64,000 nucleotides of DNA from Candidatus Bathyarchaeota archaeon (lineage in GTDB: Archaea > Thermoproteota > Bathyarchaeia > Bathyarchaeales > WUQV01). Shown one piece after another: positions 274-13,010 of the stretch. The notes under the pieces are model-generated. The model saw nothing but the letters and a program-made list of their open reading frames with translations. It had not been told where the DNA came from and made no database searches. Positions within the stretch are counted from its first letter, which is position 1. Each line of letters opens with the position of its first letter. Where the stretch lies: positions 91,612 to 155,611 of the forward strand of contig JAGGVF010000012.1 in the NCBI GenBank assembly GCA_021158125.1, written 5' to 3'. Made by a program: the position numbers and the translations under genes.

Positions 274-834
274 GTGATGAAAATGGCGAAAACTTTAACA
301 TCTAAACCTTCAAAACAGCGTAAAAGGCTATATACTGCACCGCTTCATGTAAGGTCTAAAATTCTTTCCGCACCTTTATCACCTGACTTAAGAGAAAAAT
401 ACGGTTTTAGGTCTCTTCCAATTCGCGTAGGCGATAAAGTTCAGATTTTAAGAGGCGACCATAAGGGTTTTGAAGGAAAAGTCTTGAAGGTCGACCGCAA
501 AAAATATCGGATTTCAGTAGAAGGAATTACCCGTGAAAAAGTTGACGGAACAACGATAAATGTTCCAATACACCCGTCAAAAGTTATGATTACGGAATTA
601 AATCTTGACGACAAGTGGCGAAGGAAAAAAATTGAAAGGAAAAGGAAAGCTAGAGAAGCCGCTGAAGAAAGAAAAGCGAAAAAGGAAGAAGTAATAGAAG
701 AAGCTGAAAAAGTTGAAGAAGAGGAAGTAAAGGCTGAAGAAGAAAAGAAGGAAAAGCGAAAGAAGAAAAGGAAAACTCGGAGGAAGACAGCAACAAAGAC
801 TTCTAAGAGAAAGAAAGCTGAGAAGGAGGAGTAA
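274..834 (+). CDS. rpl24: 50S ribosomal protein uL24 with long K/E-rich C-terminal tail
   Basis: KOW region [31 protein letters not shown] start cluster lies directly after the uL14 stop. Residues ~121-186 are a low-complexity K/E tail. Confidence 0.9.
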
Positions 835-836
835 TT

Positions 837-1595
837 TTGGGTAAGAAAGGAGGAAGTAGACACCTTAAACGGAAGCCGGCTCCGAAACATTGGCCAATTC
901 CAAGGAAAAAATTCGTGTGGGCTGTTAAACCTAAACCTGGCCCCCATCCAATTTCGAAATGTTTACCCCTCGTACTTATAATGCGGGACATCTTAGGCTT
1001 TGCAAAAACTAGAGCAGAAGCAAAAAAGATTATTTCTCAAGGCAAAGTTTTAGTTGACGGAAAAGTTCGGAAAGAGGAGCTTTACCCTGCCGGATTAATG
1101 GACGTAGTTGCAATTCCAGAAGTTGATAAAGTTTTTAGGATACTACCATTCCGAAAGGGTTTAACTCTTCACCCAATTGAAAAAGAGGAAAGCAAATTCA
1201 AGCTTTGCAGAATAGAGAATAAAACCGCAGTAAAAAATGGCCACATACAACTCAACCTCCATGACGGAAGCAACATACTCGTGAAGGTGGCTGACCCTAA
1301 AAATCCAGAAGAAGACACCTACAAAACGTTAAACACACTTAAAGTTAGTTTACCTGAAAGAGAAATCATCGAACAATTCGAACTCAAAGTTGGAGCCCCA
1401 GCGATAATAACTGGCGGAAAAAACATGGGAAGATACGGAAAAATAGTTGAGATAGAAGAAAGGCCGGGGAAGAAACGCAGAAACTTGCTTGTAACGCTTG
1501 AAGACCCCAAAGGGGAACGTTTCCAAACAATACTGGACTTCACATTTGTCGTTGGCGACAGCGAACCATGCATATCCATACCGGAGGTAAGTTGA
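837..1595 (+). CDS. rps4e: 30S ribosomal protein eS4
   Basis: N-terminus MGKKGGSRHLKRKPAPKHWPIPRKKFVWAVKPKPGPHP is the eS4 signature. TTG start sits just after GGAGGAG. Confidence 0.9.
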   Translation: MGKKGGSRHLKRKPAPKHWPIPRKKFVWAVKPKPGPHPISKCLPLVLIMRDILGFAKTRAEAKKIISQGKVLVDGKVRKEELYPAGLMDVVAIPEVDKVFRILPFRKGLTLHPIEKEESKFKLCRIENKTAVKNGHIQLNLHDGSNILVKVADPKNPEEDTYKTLNTLKVSLPEREIIEQFELKVGAPAIITGGKNMGRYGKIVEIEERPGKKRRNLLVTLEDPKGERFQTILDFTFVVGDSEPCISIPEVS

Positions 1596-2149
1596 TGATG
1601 ACATCGGCTCCAACAGAAGAAGAAATTCGAAAAAAATGGCAAGAAAATCCTATGCTTAAACCTAGAATAGAAAAGGTAACAGTAAACATTTGTGTTGGAA
1701 AATCTGGGGAACCATTAGAAAAAGCATCGAAGGTCCTCGAGGAGTTAACGGGCCAGAGGCCTTCTAGACGTAAGGCCAGGCAGACCATACGTGATTTCGG
1801 CATAAGGAAAGGTGAACCAATCGCCTGCGTTGTAACTTTGAGGAAGGATAGAGCAGTTGAATTTTTAAAGAAGGCTTTTCAGGCGATTGGTAACAAGCTT
1901 TCTAAAGGTTGTTTTGATAGGTTTGGAAATTTCTCTTTCGGAATTAGGGAACATATAGATATTCCTGGAACCAAGTATTCGCCTGAACTTGGAATTTACG
2001 GAATGGATGTTTGCGTCTCCCTTGAACGTCCTGGATATAGGGTTAAAAGGAGACGTAGGGCCAAATCGAAGATTGGTAGAAGGCACCTGCTAACTCCAGA
2101 AGAAGCCATGGTATTTATTAAGGACGAATTCGGCGTTGAAATAGTGTAG
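1595..2149 (+). CDS. rpl5: 50S ribosomal protein uL5
   Basis: ATGA overlap with the eS4 stop, and GGAGGT 6 nt upstream. Motifs PRIEKVTVNICVG, FGIRKGEPIACVVTLR, GMDVCVSLERPG. The track ORF start at 1568 lies inside eS4 and is less likely. Confidence 0.88.
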   Translation: MMTSAPTEEEIRKKWQENPMLKPRIEKVTVNICVGKSGEPLEKASKVLEELTGQRPSRRKARQTIRDFGIRKGEPIACVVTLRKDRAVEFLKKAFQAIGNKLSKGCFDRFGNFSFGIREHIDIPGTKYSPELGIYGMDVCVSLERPGYRVKRRRRAKSKIGRRHLLTPEEAMVFIKDEFGVEIV

Positions 2150-2158
2150 GTGATAAGT

Positions 2159-2323
2159 TTGGCTAAACAAAAGCCTAAAAAAGTTCGAAAGTATGGGAAG
2201 GGTAGTAGACCGTGTAGACGTTGCGGCTCTTACGGTCCAGTGATTAGACGTTATGGTTTATATTTGTGTAGGCAATGCTTTAGGGAAGTAGCCAAAAAAT
2301 TGGGATTTAAAAAATATGAGTAG
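2159..2323 (+). CDS. rps14: 30S ribosomal protein uS14 (zinc-ribbon type), 54 aa, absent from ORF track
   Basis: Hand translation gives (M)[53 protein letters not shown]. It has CxxC...CxxC and sits between uL5 and uS8. TTG 2159 has GGTGAT 5 nt upstream; an alternative GTG is at 2150. Confidence 0.88.
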
Positions 2324-2335
2324 AGGCTGAAAAAC

Positions 2336-2728
2336 TTGACTATGATGGACACCTTGGCCAATGGCCTCACAACCATAATGAATAACGAAATGCGAAGGAA
2401 GAAAGAATGCGTAATTACTCCAGCCTCTAAACTTTTAGGCAGAGTTTTAAGAATTATGCAGTTAAACGGTTATATAGGAGAATTCGAATTTATCGACGAC
2501 GGACGTTCCGGAAAGTTTAAAGTTCAGCTTTTAGGCAGAATAAACAAATGCGGGGCCATAAAGCCCAGATATCCTGTTAAAGCTGACGAATTTGAAAAAT
2601 GGGAGAAACAGTTCCTCCCAGCGAGGGATATAGGCTTACTTATAGTTTCAACTCCGCAGGGTGTAATGTCACATAAGGAAGCTAAACAAAAGAAGGTAGG
2701 GGGAAGATTACTAGCCTACGTCTACTAG
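2336..2728 (+). CDS. rps8: 30S ribosomal protein uS8
   Basis: [53 protein letters not shown]...GGRLLAYVY is typical archaeal uS8. Confidence 0.9.
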
Positions 2729-2740
2729 GAGAAAAATCAA

Positions 2741-3289
2741 ATGCAAGCGGTTGAAGTAGCGAAAACGGTTGAAGTCCCCGAAGGCGTTGAGGTTAGCATA
2801 GAGAATAAATGTGTAACAGTTAAAGGAGAGAAGGGTACCCTAACACGTGACTTTTCCTCAGCTCCAATTGAAATCGAACTAGAAGACGGAAAAGTAAAGG
2901 TTTACGCTAAATGGCCCCGTAAAAAAGAGGCCGCCCTTGTAGGCACGATTTCAGCGCATATACAGAACATGATAACAGGAGTCACAAAAGGGTTTACTTA
3001 CAAATTAAAAATAGTCTTTTCGCATTTTCCAATTTCAGTTAAGGTTCAAGGGGACAAAATTTTAATAGAAAACTTTACCGGTGAGAAAACTCCGCGAATA
3101 GCTAAAATTGTTGGAACCGCAAAGGTTACGGTTAAAGGCGACGATGTCATCGTTCAAGGGATAAACATAGAAGACGTCGGACAAACAGCCGCAAACATCG
3201 AGCAAGCAACAAAAATCAAGAAAAAAGACCCCAGAATCTTCTTAGACGGCATATACATTTACGAACGAAAAGAGGGAATGGAAGATTGA
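2741..3289 (+). CDS. rpl6: 50S ribosomal protein uL6
   Basis: VEVPEGVEVSIENKCVTVKGEKGTLTRDF...FTYKLKIVFSHFPISVKVQGDKILIENFTGEK. Operon position supports the call. Confidence 0.9.
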   Translation: MQAVEVAKTVEVPEGVEVSIENKCVTVKGEKGTLTRDFSSAPIEIELEDGKVKVYAKWPRKKEAALVGTISAHIQNMITGVTKGFTYKLKIVFSHFPISVKVQGDKILIENFTGEKTPRIAKIVGTAKVTVKGDDVIVQGINIEDVGQTAANIEQATKIKKKDPRIFLDGIYIYERKEGMED

Positions 3290-3891
3290 CACCTAAGAAG
3301 AAATCAGAAGAAAATTCAGCTGCAAACACTGAATTAGCCGCTAAAGAGAAGGCCTTAAAGCTACGTGAAGCCCTAAAACATAAACGACCAGATTTTGTCC
3401 GTCAGGAAAGTTGGCGATATAAGAGAATTAAGGAAAACTGGAGAAGACCCCGCGGATTAGACAGCAAAATGCGAAGAAAAATCAAGGGTTGGCCGAAATG
3501 CCCTGAAGTTGGATATAGAGGACCAAAAGCTGCAAGAGGGCTTCATCCATCCGGTTACGAGGAAATTCTCGTTTATAACCCAAACGATTTAGATAAAGTT
3601 GACCCAGAAAAGCAAGCTATTAGAATCGCCCACACAGTTGGAATTAAAAAGAGAATGGAAATAATAGCGAAAGCTACTAGCAAGAAAATTAGAATTTTGA
3701 ACCCGAAGGAAGCAGAACTAGAGCTGGAAGAAGAAAGAGAAAAGCTTGAAGCTGAAGAAGAAGAAGAACTGGAAGAAGAAAAGGCTAAAATTGAAGAAGC
3801 TGAAAAAGAAGAGGGCAAAAAAGAGAGAGAAAGGGCTAAGACTAGAAAAACCAAGAAAAGAAAGAAAGCAGAGAAAGGTGAAGAAAAGTGA
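3286..3891 (+). CDS. rpl32e: 50S ribosomal protein eL32 with K/E-rich C-terminal tail
   Basis: HKRPDFVRQESWRYKRIKENWRRPRGLDSKMR...GYRGPKAARGLHPSGYEE. Residues ~141-201 are an acidic/basic low-complexity tail. Confidence 0.88.
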   Translation: MTPKKKSEENSAANTELAAKEKALKLREALKHKRPDFVRQESWRYKRIKENWRRPRGLDSKMRRKIKGWPKCPEVGYRGPKAARGLHPSGYEEILVYNPNDLDKVDPEKQAIRIAHTVGIKKRMEIIAKATSKKIRILNPKEAELELEEEREKLEAEEEEELEEEKAKIEEAEKEEGKKERERAKTRKTKKRKKAEKGEEK

Positions 3892-4340
3892 GCTTAAAAA
3901 GTCAGCGGAGACTAGCGGCCAAAATACTGAAAGTTGGAGAAAACAGAGTATGGATAAATCCAGACCGCATAGATGACGTTCAAGCAGCAATAACACGTGA
4001 AGAAATAAAGAAACTTATCCATGAAGGTGCAATTAAGGCTCTCCCCAAGGAGGGAGTCAGCAGAGCCCGTGCCAGAATTATACATGCCAAGAAAAAGAAG
4101 GGATTGAGGAAGGGGCCGGGAAGCAGAAGTGGAGCCTCGGGGGCTATCATGAGTAAAAAAGAGGCTTGGATGAAGAAAATTAGAGCTTTAAGGAGGAGGC
4201 TTCGAGAGTTAAGAGAAAAGCGCATAATAACTGAAAGTGTTTACCGAAAACTTTACGTGATGGCTAAAAGTGGAAGATTTGAATCTAAAGCCGAACTTGA
4301 AAACTACATTAAAGCGCAGGGCTGGTGGAGAAAGCGTTGA
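3888..4340 (+). CDS. rpl19e: 50S ribosomal protein eL19
   Basis: [50 protein letters not shown]; 4-nt overlap with eL32. Confidence 0.9.
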
Positions 4341-5062
4341 CAGCTAAAGGTCCGAGATATCGTGTTCCATTTCGGAGAAGAAGAGAGGGAAAAACAGATT
4401 ATCGTGCGAGAAAGGCCTTAATCCTCTCGAAACTTCCCAGAATAGTTGCACGTGGCTCCTTAAATCACATGACAGTTCAAGTAGTAAAAGCAAAAATTGA
4501 AGGAGACGAAGTTTTAACTTCTGCCCACTCAAAGGAATTAACTAAAAAGTTTGGCTGGAAAGGCTCATGCGGAAATACTCCAGCCGCCTACTTAACGGGA
4601 TTTTTATGCGGACTAAAAGCTTTGGAAAAAGGAATTAAAAAGGCAATTTTAGACATAGGCCTAAGAACTCCTACTAAAGGCAGTAAAGTTTTTGCGGTTT
4701 TAAAGGGCCTACTAGACGCCGGAGTTGAAGTTCCCCACGGAGAGGAGAAACTACCAGATGAATCAAGAATAAGGGGGGAACATATAGCAAATTACGCTAA
4801 ACAACTTGCAACAGAAAATCCGGAAGAATACAGGAAAAGATTTTCTCAATATCTGGCCAGAAGATTAAAGCCTGAAAAACTTCCGGAACACTTTTTGAAG
4901 GTGAAGGAGAAAATCTTAAAGGCATTTAAAAAGCCTGAGAAAAAGGCTAAAGTTAAAAAGCCAGCGAAGAAACGTAAGGCAAAAGCAAAGGCAAAAACCA
5001 AAAAAGTTTCTAAAAAGCGTAGTGGAAGAAGAAAGGCTAAAGGAGAGGAGAAAGAAAAGTGA
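4325..5062 (+). CDS. rpl18: 50S ribosomal protein uL18 with K-rich C-terminal tail
   Basis: [25 protein letters not shown]...LNHMTVQVV. The last ~44 aa read [44 protein letters not shown]. Confidence 0.88.
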
Positions 5063-5712
5063 GCAGTTCACGTAGACGATTAAGCCGTATAAAAGAGTCA
5101 CTTGAAGAGTGGGTTCCTAAAACCAAGCTTGGAAGAATGGTTCGTGAAGGGAAGATAACTTCAATTGAAGAAATATTTATGGAAGGATACAGAATTCGGG
5201 AACCCGAAATAGTGGACATTTTAATTTCAGACCTAGAGGAGGAAGTTATAAACATAAGCCTAGTTCAGAAACAAACAGACGCCGGTGAACAATCAAGATT
5301 TAAGGCGATAGTGGCTGTTGGAAACCGAGACGGCTATATTGGCTTAGGCTCAGGAAAAGCCAGACAAGTGCGAACAGCCATTGAAAAAGCTGCTTTGGAC
5401 GCCAGACTTAACATAACTCCGGTTAGGAGAGGATGCGGAAGCTGGGAGTGCGGATGCGGAAAGCCCCACTCGTTACCATTCCAAGTTAGAGGAAAATGCG
5501 GAAGCGTCGAAATAGTGTTAATTCCAGGCCCAAGAGGCCTAGGACTAGTCGCAAGCGAAATAGCGAAAATAATTTTAGGCCTAGCCGGAGTGAAGGACTG
5601 CTGGACGAGAAGCTACGGATCAACAAGAACTGTTCCATCATTCGCTTACGCAGTTTTCGATGCCTTAAAGAAAACCTATGAACTTGTAACCCCAAGCGAC
5701 TGGGTGAGATAG
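5059..5712 (+). CDS. rps5: 30S ribosomal protein uS5
   Basis: [22 protein letters not shown]...[31 protein letters not shown]...[21 protein letters not shown]. Confidence 0.9.
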
Positions 5713-5714
5713 CA

Positions 5715-6194
5715 ATGGCGGAAAACCCAAAATGCCTACTTGTGGTTCGAATACGCGGCGTCATAGATGCGCCAGGAGACGTCAAAGACACATTAAAAAT
5801 GTTAAACTTGAAACGAAACAATCACGCTGTGATTATTAGAGATACGCCGTCCTACCGCGGCATGCTTCAAAAGGCCCAAAACTACATAACTTGGGGAGAA
5901 CCAACCGAAAACACCGTAGTTGAGCTTATAAAAAAGCGTGGGAGACTGCTCGGTGACAAGAAAATCACAGATGACTACGCTAAAAAGGTTGGATTTAAAT
6001 CTGTTGAAGACTTAGCCAAGGCTGTTTTTGAAGGAAAAGTTGACTATGGAAAGCTTCCTGAAATAAAGCCGTTTTTCAGGCTGCATCCTCCTTCTAAAGG
6101 GTTTAAGGGTAAGATTAAGAAAAGCTACAAGATGGGTGGAGAAACAGGTTATAGAGGAGAAGCAATTAACCAACTGATTGAAAGGATGATTTAA
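5715..6194 (+). CDS. rpl30: 50S ribosomal protein uL30
   Basis: LLVVRIRGVIDAPGDVKDTLKMLNLKRNNHAVII...YITWGEP; follows uS5. Confidence 0.88.
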   Translation: MAENPKCLLVVRIRGVIDAPGDVKDTLKMLNLKRNNHAVIIRDTPSYRGMLQKAQNYITWGEPTENTVVELIKKRGRLLGDKKITDDYAKKVGFKSVEDLAKAVFEGKVDYGKLPEIKPFFRLHPPSKGFKGKIKKSYKMGGETGYRGEAINQLIERMI

Positions 6195-6202
6195 CCAAAC
6201 AC

Positions 6203-6210
6203 TTTATAGA
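6203..6210 (+). promoter_or_regulatory. Candidate TATA box for the hsp20 insert
   Basis: TTTATAGA lies ~30 nt upstream of ATG 6238, in the 43-nt gap after uL30. This spacing fits a leaderless or short-leader archaeal promoter. Confidence 0.35.
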
Positions 6211-6237
6211 GAGTTAGGTTCATTTTGAATTAGGCTT

Positions 6238-6771
6238 ATGGGGGAGAAGGAACTGAAGGATAAAAAGAACAAGAAACGTTCTCCGTGGTTTGACATCTTT
6301 GACGAAATAAAGAAACTTGAAAAAATGATGGACGAACTCATGAAAAGCATAGAATCCTCAAACAGATATGCTAGAAGACATAAACCAGCCTACGGTTTTT
6401 CTAGAACATTTACGAGAAATAAAAAACCTGTAGTCAAAGGGTTTAGACGCTACACTAAAGAATATTTAAGCTCCGAAATTAGGGACCAATACGAACCATT
6501 AATAGACGTTTTTGACGAGAAAGACAAAATAAGAATTGTAGCGGAGGTTTTAGGCATTAAAAAAGAGGATGTAGACATTTATGCCACAGAAGAATCATTA
6601 ACAATTTCCGTTCACGATGAAAATATGAAGTTCTATAAGGAAATAGCCCTTCCCGCCAAAGTAGACCCAAAAACTGCAGTTGCAAGATACAAAAACGGCG
6701 TTTTAGAAATTTGCCTAAAAAAGACTAAGGGAAAAAGTCTTTTCGGCGGCCAGAAAATTTTCGTGAAATAA
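6238..6771 (+). CDS. Small heat-shock protein, Hsp20/alpha-crystallin family
   Basis: The alpha-crystallin domain is readable: EPLIDVFDEKDKIRIVAEVLGIKKEDVDIYATEESLTISV...FYKEIALPAKVDPKTAVARYKNGVLEICLKK. Confidence 0.85.
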   Translation: MGEKELKDKKNKKRSPWFDIFDEIKKLEKMMDELMKSIESSNRYARRHKPAYGFSRTFTRNKKPVVKGFRRYTKEYLSSEIRDQYEPLIDVFDEKDKIRIVAEVLGIKKEDVDIYATEESLTISVHDENMKFYKEIALPAKVDPKTAVARYKNGVLEICLKKTKGKSLFGGQKIFVK

Positions 6772-6836
6772 TGCGGAAAGAATTTATGTTTGATTGCAAA
6801 ATATGATTGAACGCAAAGCCTGTTGAGGACTCAGCT

Positions 6837-7289
6837 ATGCCGCATAAACTTAGAAAAACAAGGAAAAAACGTGGAAGCAGAACATGTGGCTATGGTAGGG
6901 TGGGCCAGCATAGAAAGTCAGGAACAAAAGGCGGAAGAAGAGCAGGCCGCCATAAACACTTATGGTCGTACGTATTAAGGTATGAACCAGACTACTTCGG
7001 AAAGAGAGGATTTACTTCTCCAAGATCGCTTCAAAGAGTTGAAAATCCAATTAATGTTGGACAGCTAGGAGAATTAATTGATAAGCTTTCCCTAGAAGGA
7101 AAACTGGAAAAGAAAAACGGCAAAATATTTGTTGACTTGGAAAAGTTTGGATATACAAAGCTTCTAGGGATGGGAAGAATAGACAAAGCGGTGGTTGTAA
7201 AAGTTCCGGCTTTCTCGGCTTCGGCGGCAGAAAAAATCAGAGCTGCCGGAGGCGAAATATTAGAGGGGAAAGGCAATAAAATTAATTAG
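6837..7289 (+). CDS. rpl15: 50S ribosomal protein uL15
   Basis: MPHKLRKTRKKRGSRTCGYGRVGQHRKSGTKGGRRAGRHKH. ATG 6837 is preferred over the track's alternative start at 6807. Confidence 0.88.
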   Translation: MPHKLRKTRKKRGSRTCGYGRVGQHRKSGTKGGRRAGRHKHLWSYVLRYEPDYFGKRGFTSPRSLQRVENPINVGQLGELIDKLSLEGKLEKKNGKIFVDLEKFGYTKLLGMGRIDKAVVVKVPAFSASAAEKIRAAGGEILEGKGNKIN

Positions 7290-7338
7290 GTTAAAGTAAA
7301 CCTTGCTAGGATAGATACAACCGTAAAAGGGAAAATCG

Positions 7339-8736
7339 ATGGCGGGCAGATTCCTTTCACTGTTTAAGCCAATATCGCATTATTTACCTGTAATCAGCCC
7401 TCCGAAACGTAAAGTAAGGTTTACTGAGAAAATATTCTGGACAGCAATAGTCCTCATCCTATACCTCATAATGTGTGAAATTCCACTCTATGGAGTCGCT
7501 GGAGGAGGATGGGAACTTACCTACATGCGAGTTATATTCGCATCGAGAAGAGGAACCCTAATGGAGCTGGGCATAGGCCCAATAGTCACTGCGGGCTTAA
7601 TCCTCCAACTTCTCGTAGGAGCAAACATGATAGAATGCGACATGACAGACCCGGAGGATAGAGCACTCTTCACCTCTGCAAGTAAAGCCTTCTCTATAAT
7701 ATTCACTGGAATTCAAGCCTCAGCCTACATAATCGGAGGAGTCTACGGCCGCCTCAACATGATAACATCAATAATAGTTTTCCTCCAACTCATTGCAGCA
7801 GGAGTTATCGTCATACTTCTCGACGAACTTGTCCAAAAAGGGTGGGGCATAGGAAGTGGAGTAAGCCTATTCATATTAGCCGGAGTCGCTCAGCAAATAT
7901 TCAATCAATGCTTCTTCCCAACTGGGGGAATATTCCCAGCAATAATTTCAGCTTTGGCCAGCGGTGACTCACTAGCTCCGCTTTTCGTTAGACAAGGCCC
8001 TTCAATCATTGGTTTTATAGCAACAATTGTGGTCTTTTTCATAATAATCTACTTAGAAGGAATACGTGTTGAAATTCCCATAGCTCATGCCATGTATAGA
8101 GGTTACAGAGGTCGATACCCCATTAAGCTACTCTACGTATCGAACCTACCTGTGATATTTGCGTCAGCGCTTTTCGCAAATGTTTACTTCTTCTCTCAAC
8201 TTCTTTGGAGCAACTTTGGAAATAGTCCAAATCCAACCGTCAAGTTTTTCGTTAGTCTTTTGGGAACGTATAGCACAGGAGAACAGGGACAATTAATCCC
8301 TTCAGGGGGCTTAGTTTACTATGTTACCTCCCCGAGGTGGCTTGGCGGCGTAGCAGCTGACCCGCTGAGAGCGTTTGGTTATACAGCGATACTTGTTATT
8401 TTCTGTGTTGTCTTCTCTGTAACTTGGCTTGAAGTTGGAGGGTTAGGCCCTTCAACAGTAGCGAAACAGCTTGTTGACTCTGGAATGCAGATTCCAGGTT
8501 ATAGGAGATCCGCCAGACCAATTGAATCTTTGTTGAAACGATATATTCCGCCAGTTGCAGTTTTAGGCGGCATAATTGTTGGCTTAATAGCTGCTTTTGC
8601 AGACTTCTTAGGTGTTTTTGGAAGCGGTATGGGAATACTCCTATCAGTAGGCATAATCTACCAGTATTATCAGGCAATAGTTCAAGAAAGAGCAGCGGAC
8701 ATGTATCCAGCCCTCAGAAGGTTCCTTGGAAAGTAG
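7339..8736 (+). CDS. secY: Preprotein translocase subunit SecY
   Basis: 465 aa with about 10 hydrophobic segments. Motifs SRRGTLMELGIGPIVTAGLILQLL and IPGYRRS. Canonical position after uL15. Confidence 0.92.
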   Translation: MAGRFLSLFKPISHYLPVISPPKRKVRFTEKIFWTAIVLILYLIMCEIPLYGVAGGGWELTYMRVIFASRRGTLMELGIGPIVTAGLILQLLVGANMIECDMTDPEDRALFTSASKAFSIIFTGIQASAYIIGGVYGRLNMITSIIVFLQLIAAGVIVILLDELVQKGWGIGSGVSLFILAGVAQQIFNQCFFPTGGIFPAIISALASGDSLAPLFVRQGPSIIGFIATIVVFFIIIYLEGIRVEIPIAHAMYRGYRGRYPIKLLYVSNLPVIFASALFANVYFFSQLLWSNFGNSPNPTVKFFVSLLGTYSTGEQGQLIPSGGLVYYVTSPRWLGGVAADPLRAFGYTAILVIFCVVFSVTWLEVGGLGPSTVAKQLVDSGMQIPGYRRSARPIESLLKRYIPPVAVLGGIIVGLIAAFADFLGVFGSGMGILLSVGIIYQYYQAIVQERAADMYPALRRFLGK

Positions 8737-8748
8737 GCTGGAGGAAAC

Positions 8749-9333
8749 ATGAAAAAATTAGTTGTAGTTACCGGAATTCCGGGAGCCGGAAAAACAACTG
8801 TGTGCAAGGAAGTGGAAAAAATAGCTGAAAAAAGAGGAAAAGAAGTTAAGACAGTAAACTTTGGCACAGTTATGGTTGAACTTGCAAAGAAAAGGGGTAA
8901 AGAACTGCACAGAGACGACATAAGAAAGCATTCAATAGATTTTCAGCAGAAACTCCAAACTGAGGCGGCAAAAAAGATAATGGAAAAAACGAAAAATGTG
9001 AAGGGATGCTTAATTGTTGACACCCACATGGTTGTAAGAACTCGAGAAGGATACTTCGCTGGATTACCCCACAGAGTTCTTCAAATTTTAAACCCAGAAA
9101 TCTTCATTCTAATAGAAGCTACTCCAGAAGAAATCTTAACAAGAAGATTTAAAGACGCCGACAGAAAAAGAGACAAAATTTTGGAAGAGGAAGTTCTCGA
9201 AGAACTTTCCTTCTCTAGATTCTTTGCAGCATCGTGCGCTTCCCTAACTGGAGCGCCAGTGAAAATAGTTAAAAACCCCGATGGAAAACAAGTTGAAGCA
9301 GCAAAAGAAATATTGAAGTTACTGGAGGAATAG
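8749..9333 (+). CDS. adkA: Adenylate kinase, archaeal type
   Basis: P-loop VVVTGIPGAGKTTV; length ~194 aa; position after secY. Confidence 0.85.
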   Translation: MKKLVVVTGIPGAGKTTVCKEVEKIAEKRGKEVKTVNFGTVMVELAKKRGKELHRDDIRKHSIDFQQKLQTEAAKKIMEKTKNVKGCLIVDTHMVVRTREGYFAGLPHRVLQILNPEIFILIEATPEEILTRRFKDADRKRDKILEEEVLEELSFSRFFAASCASLTGAPVKIVKNPDGKQVEAAKEILKLLEE

Positions 9334-11084: not shown

Positions 11085-12115
11085 ATGCAGAAAAATATTC
11101 CACCTTGGCAAGTAAAGAGAGAAATAGTAATAAAAAATGAGGAAAAAACGGACCCACGCTACGGATACAAACCTGAAGAAAGACCCATAAAGGAATACAT
11201 AAAATTCGGAATAGTAAACTTAGATAAGCCTCCAGGCCCGTCAAGCCACGAAGTAACAGCATGGGTAAGGAAAATCTTAGAGGTAAAGAAAGCCGGTCAC
11301 GGAGGGACCCTTGAAGCCTCACTTGAGGCTGGGGAAATCCCAAGGTGACTGGAGTTTTACCAATAGCCCTCGAAGAAGCAACAAAAATAATTCAAGCCCT
11401 ACAGTTAGCCGGAAAAGAATACGTATGTGTTATGAAACTTCACGGTGAAGTTTCAGAAGAAAAACTGAAAATGGTCTTTAAAGAATTTGAAGGAACAATT
11501 TATCAGCGGCCTCCGTTGAGGGCTTCCGTCAAACGTAGACTAAGAACTAGAAAGATCTATTATTTGGAACTGCTGGAGAAAGATGGAAGAAACGTCCTTT
11601 TTAAAGTTGGATGTGAAGGTGGAACATACATCCGCAAACTATGTTATGATATAGGTGAAGTTTTAGGCTGTGGGGCCCACATGCAAGAACTGAGACGAAC
11701 AAGAGCAGGCCCCCTAACCGAAGAAGAAAACTGCATAGACCTATACGACCTATCCTATTATCACAGCTTATGGAAAGAAAAGAAAGATGACGCATACATA
11801 AGAAAAATTATTCTGCCAATGGAAAAAGCCTTAGATCACATTCCAAAAATTTTCATAAGGGACTCGGCCGTAGAGGCGATATGTTATGGAGCAAACCTAG
11901 CTGCCCCGGGCGTAGTTTCCCTAGAAACTGGAATATTAAAGGACATGACTGTTGCCATTTTTACGTTAAAAGGCGAAGCAGTTGCATTGGCTAAGGCCTT
12001 AGCTTCAACAGAGGAAATTCTGAATATGACCCACGGTTTCGTAGCCAAGACAAAGAGAGTCCTAATGCCTAAGGGCGTATACCCCAAAATGTGGGGGAAA
12101 AGCTCAAGTGTTTAA
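11085..12115 (+). CDS. cbf5: H/ACA RNP pseudouridine synthase Cbf5, interrupted by a 23-nt BHB intron
   Basis: Track ORFs 11085-11348 and 11345-12115 are the two halves of Cbf5. The first ends ...KKAGHGGTL and then goes off into a stop; the second begins VTGVLPIALEEATK. Removing 11314-11336 restores GHGGTL-D-PKVTGVLP, the TruB/Cbf5 catalytic-Asp motif. A PUA-like C-terminus is present. Confidence 0.9.
11314..11336 (+). other. Bulge-helix-bulge (BHB) intron within cbf5 mRNA
   Basis: Outer helix 11304-07 GGGA pairs with 11338-41 UCCC. Central 4-bp helix 11308-11 CCCU pairs with 11331-34 GGGG. The 3-nt bulges are UGA (11312-14) and AAA (11335-37). Inner hairpin 11315-20 AGCCUC pairs with 11325-30 GAGGCU, with loop ACUU. 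The boundary is ambiguous by 1 nt because of flanking A residues. Confidence 0.8.
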
Positions 12116-12740: not shown

Positions 12741-12787
12741 AAACACCGTTAACATTCAGAAGTAAATGAAGCGCCGGGGTCTCCTAG

Positions 12788-12807
12788 AGCGCATAAACCG
12801 CGGGAAA
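12788..12807 (+). other. Non-canonical D-loop intron of tRNA-Ser (about position 15/16)
   Basis: Relaxed BHB. D-stem strand UCCU (12782-85) pairs with intronic GGGA (12802-05). Bulges are AGA (12786-88) and AAU (12806-08). The inner 3-bp hairpin is GCG/CGC. No convincing outer helix is present. Confidence 0.6.
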
Positions 12808-12830
12808 TCCGGTAGGGAGCGGGCCTGGAG

Positions 12831-12859
12831 AGTAAAAGTTAGCATAAAACAGCCTTGCA
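12831..12859 (+). other. Canonical-position (37/38) intron of tRNA-Ser
   Basis: A 29-nt insert AGUAAAAGUUAGCAUAAAACAGCCUUGCA lies between G37 and A38. The central helix CUGG/CUUG is imperfect (one U-U mismatch, one G-U pair). Confidence 0.6.
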
Positions 12860-13010
12860 AGCCCGTGGCCCATTCGGGCCGCGTGGGTTCAAATCCCACC
12901 CCCGGCGCCATTTAATCCTTATTGTTCGAGCAAAAATTGTGCCTTATTTCTATAGAGAACGGCTATTAATTCGCTCCGTATTTCATAGTCCACAATCATT
13001 TCGCTTTTAG

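Follow-up and report, generated by a model that had tools for sequence, protein, structure and literature searches.

The archaeal core gene cbf5 is reportedly interrupted by a pre-mRNA intron in Aeropyrum, Sulfolobus and other Crenarchaeota, as is said to have been described by Watanabe et al. in 2002 and Yoshinari et al. in 2006. According to Yokobori et al. (2009), the crenarchaeal intron lies between bases 1 and 2 of the codon specifying the catalytic aspartate, measures 16-44 bp (23 bp in S. shibatae), and has junctions of the bulge-helix-bulge (BHB) type that are cleaved between bulge nucleotides 2 and 3 (PMC2738675). The crenarchaeal motifs are mostly "unconventional" or "relaxed", a feature linked to an (alpha-beta)2 endonuclease; the intron is considered to have been gained in the common ancestor of Desulfurococcales and Sulfolobales, and it is absent from the Thermoproteales, two Thaumarchaeota, and Korarchaeum (PMC2738675). 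Cleavage by the splicing endonuclease EndA and subsequent ligation are experimentally established for this intron (PMC2738675; PMC10485636), and reviews of 2020 and 2023 describe it as crenarchaeal and limited to "a relatively small group" (PMC7714728; PMC10485636). Considered here is the cbf5 gene at 11085-12115 of a 64,000-nucleotide stretch of DNA (contig JAGGVF010000012.1; the whole stretch is referred to as the window), the reading frame of which is interrupted following the sequence encoding GHGGTL. It is highly probable that a 23-nt BHB intron, 11314-11336, is spliced from the cbf5 pre-mRNA between bases 1 and 2 of the Asp codon.

The gene and all features described at this locus are on the plus strand. 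The frame that opens at 11085 passes through KKAGHGGTL and then reads EASLEAGEIPR to a stop codon at 11346-11348, giving a frame-0 open reading frame (ORF; 11085-11348) that ends in KKAGHGGTLEASLEAGEIPR. The remainder of Cbf5 is in the +2 frame, in an ORF at 11345-12115 that begins (V)TGVLPIALEE. The interrupted codon is that of the Asp in the GTLD motif, which is the catalytic residue of the TruB/Cbf5 family. Deletion of 11314-11336 (23 nt, AAGCCTCACTTGAGGCTGGGGAA) fuses CUUG to AUCCC and yields CTT-GAT-CCC-AAG, read as GHGGTLDPKVTGVLP; the GAU codon and an ORF of 335 amino acids are regained, and the junction sequence of the spliced RNA would be GGGACCCTTGATCCCAAGGTG. This repair, proposed in the initial annotation, was reproduced, as was the equivalence it claimed for deletion of 11315-11337; the product is identical because 11314 and 11337 are both A. 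The 335-residue product contains DKCLD, TruB_N, TruB_C_2, and PUA domains and matches the Cbf5 structures of P. abyssi and P. furiosus (2aus and 2hvy; E values of 4e-131 and 8e-130), with an alignment to Pyrococcus Cbf5 that is gap-free over the junction (KAGHGGTLDPKVTGVLP versus KAGHGGTLDPKVSGVLP). Exon 1 (11085-11313) comprises 76 codons and the first base (G) of the catalytic Asp codon and extends from DKCLD and the start of TruB_N to GHGGTL; exon 2 (11337-12115) supplies the AU of the Asp codon and continues with PKVTGVLP and via the PUA domain to the stop codon. Between the exons is the intron, AAGCCUCACUUGAGGCUGGGGAA (11314-11336), removal of which regains both GAU and the frame. Gene callers do give two ORFs here, as had been anticipated for a missed intron, and the window contains no second copy of cbf5.

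For the RNA from 11295 to 11350, the minimum free energy (MFE) and centroid structures predicted by RNAfold are both the hBHBh' motif, in which the BHB element stands between an outer helix h and an inner helix h' (-28.5 kcal/mol; z = -4.01; none of 200 shuffles folds equally well). The helices, bulges, and hairpin that had been drawn by hand are matched exactly. The outer helix pairs GGGA (11304-11307; the Gly codon GGG and the first base of Thr ACC) with UCCC (11338-11341; the last base of Asp GAU and the Pro codon CCC). The central 4-bp helix H pairs the exon strand CCCU (11308-11311) with the intron strand GGGG (11331-11334), a pairing that is found in the MFE fold and in relatives. Two 3-nt bulges lie on opposite strands: UGA at 11312-11314, with predicted cleavage between 11313 and 11314, and AAA at 11335-11337, with predicted cleavage between 11336 and 11337. 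The inner hairpin (11315-11330) has 6 bp in the MFE fold, formed by AGCCUC (11315-11320) and GAGGCU (11325-11330) around the loop ACUU. An extra distal exon-exon helix, GGUCAC (11295-11300) with GUGACU (11345-11350), is separated by a 3x3 internal loop and is present in the MFE structure only. By strict BHB criteria the window motif thus has an h of 4 bp, an h' of 6 bp, and two opposite 3-nt bulges with a 4-bp helix between them. The broken frame, the 23-nt deletion that mends it, and the fold are confirmed, and the interpretation as a BHB intron given in the initial annotation is supported.

The BHB motif taken alone was dropped as proof, as strict motifs are no commoner in the window than in shuffled sequence: a scan for the strict hBHBh' pattern finds 27 on the plus strand and 32 on the minus strand, and plus-strand shuffles give 18-35. 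Of these 59 motifs only the one in cbf5 mends a broken ORF. Since the strict motif is frequent by chance, what makes it significant is that it occurs at exactly the right position and with exactly the right length; for any one preset position and length, a motif would arise by chance with a probability of about 4e-6. As a separate observation, the outer helix is built wholly from codons of the conserved protein motif, GGG + A(CC) on one strand and (GA)U + CCC on the other. The coding sequence for G-T-L-D-P is self-complementary round the Asp codon and could be a predisposed site for gain of a BHB intron.

Same-site insertions are found in many relatives. When the spliced protein is searched against one genome for each GTDB species, the best 80 loci are all labelled as Bathyarchaeia or Bathyarchaeota metagenome-assembled genomes (MAGs; 61-68% identity), and 23 of them have an insertion at the identical nucleotide, in each case of a length that is a multiple of 3. 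A scan of metagenome contigs with exon 2 alone as query finds an insertion at the identical nucleotide in 76 of the nearest 80 loci, with lengths of 16, 17, 18, 19, 20, 21, 22, 23, 24, 26, 28-34, 39, and 42 nt. The multiple-of-3 pattern was rejected as a ranking artefact: full-length tblastn ranking penalises frame-shifting inserts, and the exon-2-only query returned every length class. In total, 99 relatives and the window carry insertions of 16-42 nt, which fall in all three length classes modulo 3.

Two of these relatives are particularly close to the window gene. The intron is identical, at 23 nt, in locus L081 (98% amino acid identity) and has one loop substitution in L082 (96%). In exon 1, 6 of 8 differences from L081 and 7 of 11 from L082 are at third codon positions, and the corresponding counts for exon 2 are 19 of 25 and 27 of 36; the predominance of third-position substitutions in both exons shows that cbf5 is subject to purifying selection. 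Twenty-one assemblies share the split ORF, these being the members of the exon-2 ORF's 90% cluster, which are drawn from JGI, ENA, Logan, and NCBI. In a neighbor-joining tree of exon 2, a single-gene distance tree that is indicative only, most intron-bearing Bathyarchaeia genes form one block, and a few are placed among intron-less genes, with at least one loss. The suggestion that the intron is a useful phylogenetic marker needs correction: within Bathyarchaeia the marker is patchy, with gains or losses visible in the exon 2 tree.

Conservation of the RNA structure was assessed in 82 unique intron-bearing junctions (from the window and loci L001-L160) anchored on the splice sites. The central helix is fully paired (4 of 4) in 81 of them. 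Its second pair is U-A in 38 junctions and C-G in 43, compensatory switches that are tied to the synonymous Thr codons ACU and ACC; the third pair occurs as C-G, U-A, and the intermediate U-G, and the compensatory changes of the central helix are linked to synonymous Thr and Leu codons. The 5' bulge is NG/A (the slash marking the cut) in 79 junctions and the 3' bulge AAA in 80, and 74 junctions satisfy strict hBHBh' criteria, with h and h' each of at least 2 bp. The inner helix varies freely in sequence across relatives and retains its pairing; each of its three base-most pairs has double-sided compensatory changes. For 60 of the sequences, RNAalifold independently recovers the central and inner helices, and 97.4% of cells are paired in the proposed structure versus 21-55% when the partners are slid (outer helix 95%, central helix 99.6%). 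Double-sided changes number 39, compared with 12.1 +/- 2.6 in column shuffles, and none of 500 shuffles reaches 39.

The exon strands of these helices are also codons, for Gly-Thr-Leu on one side and Asp-Pro on the other, and RNA structure and protein therefore constrain the synonymous sites together. Of 87 intron-bearing genes, 76 encode Gly by GGG, 81 encode Asp by GAT, and 80 encode Pro by CCC; among 59 intron-less genes the counts are 11, 16, and 15, respectively. Intron-bearing genes use only ACY for Thr and nearly always CUN for Leu, whereas all synonymous codons are found in intron-less relatives. The codons that form the helices are thus synonymously constrained solely where the intron is present.

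Relatives also bear on the position of cleavage. In L020, L143, and L126 the first intron base is G or T, and Asp is regained only with a cut after bulge nucleotide 2; 11314-11336 is therefore preferred over 11315-11337 as the intron of the window gene, in agreement with the BHB rule. Cleavage after the second bulge nucleotide, from which the initial annotation derived the GAU codon, is thus the cut that these three relatives require in silico. An in-frame stop is present in 76 of the 82 introns, including all 42 that preserve the frame, and the others shift the frame and meet a stop within 22 codons; therefore no unspliced form encodes a full-length protein. In 57 of the 82 unique introns the stop is two codons past the Leu codon (of the type GAG GCU UAA), and the unspliced mRNA never encodes a full-length, catalytically dead Cbf5. 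The recurrent in-frame stops may reflect selection against a dominant-negative product, or shared ancestry.

In the proposed mechanism, cbf5 would be transcribed as a pre-mRNA containing the 23-nt intron, the exon-intron junctions of which would fold as the canonical hBHBh' motif. EndA would cut past nucleotide 2 of either bulge, after 11313 and after 11336, generating ends with 2',3'-cyclic phosphate and 5'-OH; the exons would be joined by a ligase of the RtcB type, which would probably also circularise the intron. The mature mRNA, ...GGG ACC CUU GAU CCC AAG..., would then encode an intact H/ACA pseudouridine synthase of 335 amino acids. Unspliced RNA would yield only an 87-amino acid fragment without the catalytic Asp, so that the tRNA/rRNA splicing machinery would be required for active Cbf5. 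The position of the intron probably contributes to its persistence, as only an exact deletion leaves a working catalytic motif. The intron may also have a regulatory role.

Several points weigh against this account. RNAalifold places the outer helix in a register other than GGGA/UCCC, and this helix has no double-sided changes; its support therefore comes from the single-sequence fold and the pairing counts, not from covariation, given the difference in register. The central helix has only a small number of independent compensatory events, perhaps 2-4, as the sequences are relatives of one another. For this lineage, cutting by EndA and joining by RtcB are inferred. Genes for EndA and RtcB are absent from the scanned ORFs of the window (the scan did not include the ORFs at 274-9333), and an exact look-up of ten in-silico spliced proteins in a collection of 15 billion proteins finds none of them on record.

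Other readings of the broken frame have to be set beside splicing. If the 23-bp insertion inactivated cbf5, or were an assembly or sequencing error, the two ORFs reported by gene callers would be expected, and the public protein entries, almost all of which are truncated, would fit as well. However, relatives that were assembled independently contain the same 23-nt insert, the 21-member 90% cluster drawing on four sources, and in about 100 loci an insert has been kept at this very nucleotide, accompanied by compensatory changes; in addition, substitutions of both exons are concentrated at third codon positions, and Cbf5 is a core archaeal gene with no second copy in the window. Conservation and covariation effectively refute a pseudogene or an error, which is very improbable. 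Nor is it at all likely that the ribosome frameshifts or hops over the hairpin without any splicing, as in the bypassing of T4 gene 60. A stable hairpin does follow the frame break, and the GAA at 11313-11315 and at 11334-11336 superficially resemble a take-off/landing pair; but landing at the second GAA would lead into AUC CCA AGG UGA, in the wrong frame with an immediate stop and with the Asp lost. The inserts of relatives are 16-42 nt long, varied in sequence, and in 76 of 82 cases interrupted by in-frame stops, and the relatives have no common take-off and landing codons, whereas excision at the BHB sites, and only this, restores GAY in all of them, L020, L143, and L126 included.

Some archaea have split genes, and the GTG at 11345 opens the second ORF of cbf5; polypeptides of 87 and 256 amino acids might thus be imagined to assemble into an active enzyme. 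The catalytic Asp, however, is in neither fragment, because its codon is cut after the first base. Moreover, the first ORFs end in variable C-terminal junk, terminated by stops within the intron, and what is conserved is the RNA structure, not a translation start. A functional split gene is accordingly given almost no credence.

The intron of cbf5 is also found outside Bathyarchaeia. Several N-terminally truncated Cbf5 ORFs among representatives of 50%-identity clusters were traced to DNA. Tardisphaera, a cultured member of the Thermoproteota (class Tardisphaeria, formerly Marsarchaeota), has a 17-nt cbf5 intron (L161:1476-1492, within a split cbf5 at 1280-2250; CP117708.1 range 479740-483489) with the same consensus frame, GGGA CCCU UG/A ... 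GGGG AA/A UCCC, and its Cbf5 is represented in RefSeq/GenBank only by a 249-amino acid fragment; as Tardisphaera is cultured, splicing outside Crenarchaeota is directly testable. In the MAG GCA_015522635.1 the intron is 30 nt long and its outer helix is weaker. Inserts shorter than either of these occupy the same Asp-codon site in two unplaced lineages: 12 nt (AAGCTTGAAGAA) in GCA_027371175.1 (L164:1371-1560) and 13 nt (ATTTATCGGGGAA) in Logan SRR29366205 (L167:74-263). These two inserts form the 4-bp central helix without an inner helix and are below the published cbf5 minimum of 16 bp; in size they are reminiscent of inserts of 12 bp that Yokobori et al. mention in genes of archaeal viruses (PMC2738675). 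The truncated ORF of L166 was rejected as an intron case, being a mis-called start in an intron-less gene.

Two other observations were made among these Cbf5 loci and cluster representatives. A free-standing LAGLIDADG_3 ORF of 228 amino acids (L164:2269-2955) is located directly downstream of the intron-bearing cbf5 of GCA_027371175.1. Six cluster representatives (P0123, P0141, P0144, P0182, P0225, and P0254) are 600-837 amino acids long; all six match the C-terminal part of Cbf5 at the far end, and P0123, P0141, P0144, and P0254 match Cbf5 in two separate stretches, which suggests that Cbf5 of some lineages contains a large insertion, possibly an intein.

The presence of an intron at the same nucleotide in Bathyarchaeia, Tardisphaeria, and two unplaced lineages implies either a much earlier origin with many losses or recurrent site-specific gain. 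It is possible, and is put forward tentatively as somewhat short of an even chance, that the cbf5 BHB intron derives from an early ancestor of the Thermoproteota (TACK) and is not a crenarchaeal innovation. If so, no protein-coding intron known in Archaea would be older or more widely retained, and it would have been preserved over a very long period at the catalytic codon since only exact loss is tolerated there, and/or because it couples Cbf5 synthesis to tRNA/rRNA splicing activity. Alternatively, the GGGA...UCCC exon context could be a proto-splice site that has received BHB hairpins on repeated, independent occasions. No report of a cbf5 intron in Bathyarchaeia or elsewhere outside Crenarchaeota was found in the literature searched, which was incomplete, and an earlier description is possible.

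The intron has consequences for annotation. Among the 120 best matches to exon 2 in a collection of 5.8 billion protein clusters, 117 are fragments of 227-260 amino acids that lack the catalytic Asp and begin at the exon-2 boundary or close to it; the closest match belongs to a 90% cluster of 21 members, and all 15 members listed are 256 amino acids long. Because the public Cbf5 entries are truncated in this way, an essential gene counts as truncated in metabolic and marker-gene analyses of Bathyarchaeia. The interest of the locus lies in this systematic mis-annotation, in the unexpectedly broad distribution of the intron, and in the very clean covariation of codons with RNA structure.

The genomic setting of cbf5 is a conserved archaeal one. 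The gene order is EMC3-like, L34e, cytidylate-kinase-like, KOW (L14e-like), cbf5, and MTS-methyltransferase, and L34e-cmk-L14e(KOW)-cbf5 is a conserved archaeal arrangement. The window as a whole (1-64000) is a core archaeal information-processing region; genes identified from about 9.3 kb onward include L34e, S13/S4/S11, RpoD, L18e, L13, S9, enolase, S2, mevalonate-pathway genes, GluRS, SRP19, S8e, SMC/ScpB, proteasome alpha, SBDS, exosome Rrp4/41/42, L37ae, Pcc1, and prefoldin beta. Rfam and ARAGORN find only two ordinary tRNAs in the window and no family covering the cbf5 intron. A tRNA-like gene at 12773-12912, 660 bp downstream of cbf5, in which the acceptor and T arms are intact and the variable arm is long, is not called by ARAGORN or Rfam as it stands; when about 29 nt from the anticodon loop (approximately 12831-12859) and about 15 nt from the D region are removed, ARAGORN calls tRNA-Ser(GGA). 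This is a probable intron-containing tRNA-Ser(GGA), which in turn suggests that the organism uses the splicing machinery discussed above.

Among known systems, the BHB introns of archaeal pre-tRNA and pre-rRNA resemble the window intron in having two 3-nt bulges, a 4-bp helix, flanking h and h' helices, and symmetric EndA cleavage, and tRNA introns (11-175 nt) overlap the cbf5 intron in size (PMC2738675). The 5' strand of the window motif runs through outer helix, central helix, bulge, and inner helix, and canonical tRNA introns have the same helix order, with the 5' exon pairing with the 3' end of the intron. The window intron differs from these in its location in a protein-coding mRNA, where the exon strands of the helices are codons. 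Haloferax volcanii HVO_1309 likewise contains an EndA substrate within an mRNA (Schwarz et al., 2020; PMC7714728). That intron is in the 5' untranslated region of a gene of a euryarchaeon and breaks no codon, whereas the window intron breaks the catalytic codon of an essential enzyme. In the unconventional, Ire1-dependent splicing of HAC1/XBP1 mRNA of eukaryotes, a protein endonuclease acts with a tRNA-type ligase (RtcB in metazoa). There too a short intron changes the frame and decides which protein is made; the endonuclease and recognition motif are different, however, and the process is stress-regulated, so that the likeness is an analogy only and not membership of one class.

The closest counterpart is the crenarchaeal cbf5 intron, which shares with the window intron the gene, the Asp-codon site, the size range, and BHB-type junctions. 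The initial annotation had taken such introns to be established in several Crenarchaeota, which is correct, and they are known from experiment (PMC2738675; PMC10485636). It had also asked for a comparison of intron positions; the site is the same, a comparison made with the text of PMC2738675, and a profile derived from pieces of the Yokobori supplement that had been read by machine retrieved ten short fragments and no crenarchaeal locus. Its description of 23 nt as very short does not stand against the published crenarchaeal range of 16-44 bp and the equally long intron of S. shibatae (PMC2738675). Two differences are apparent. The crenarchaeal motifs are mostly relaxed, whereas 74 of the 82 unique junctions considered here are strict hBHBh' motifs, which weakens the case for relaxed (alpha-beta)2 endonuclease specificity as a precondition for mRNA introns. 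The known hosts are Desulfurococcales and Sulfolobales, whereas the host of the window is Bathyarchaeia-like, with Bathyarchaeia MAGs at all 80 best loci; this is a limit of earlier sampling and not a mechanistic criterion. The shared site is compatible with common descent with the crenarchaeal intron, and convergence is also possible because the need to pair with conserved codons dictates the conserved parts of the intron. The window intron belongs to the known cbf5 intron class in its gene, site, size, and motif, and its mechanism is not new; what is new is the range, which takes in many Bathyarchaeia, Tardisphaera, and two unplaced lineages, where the literature restricts the intron to Desulfurococcales and Sulfolobales.

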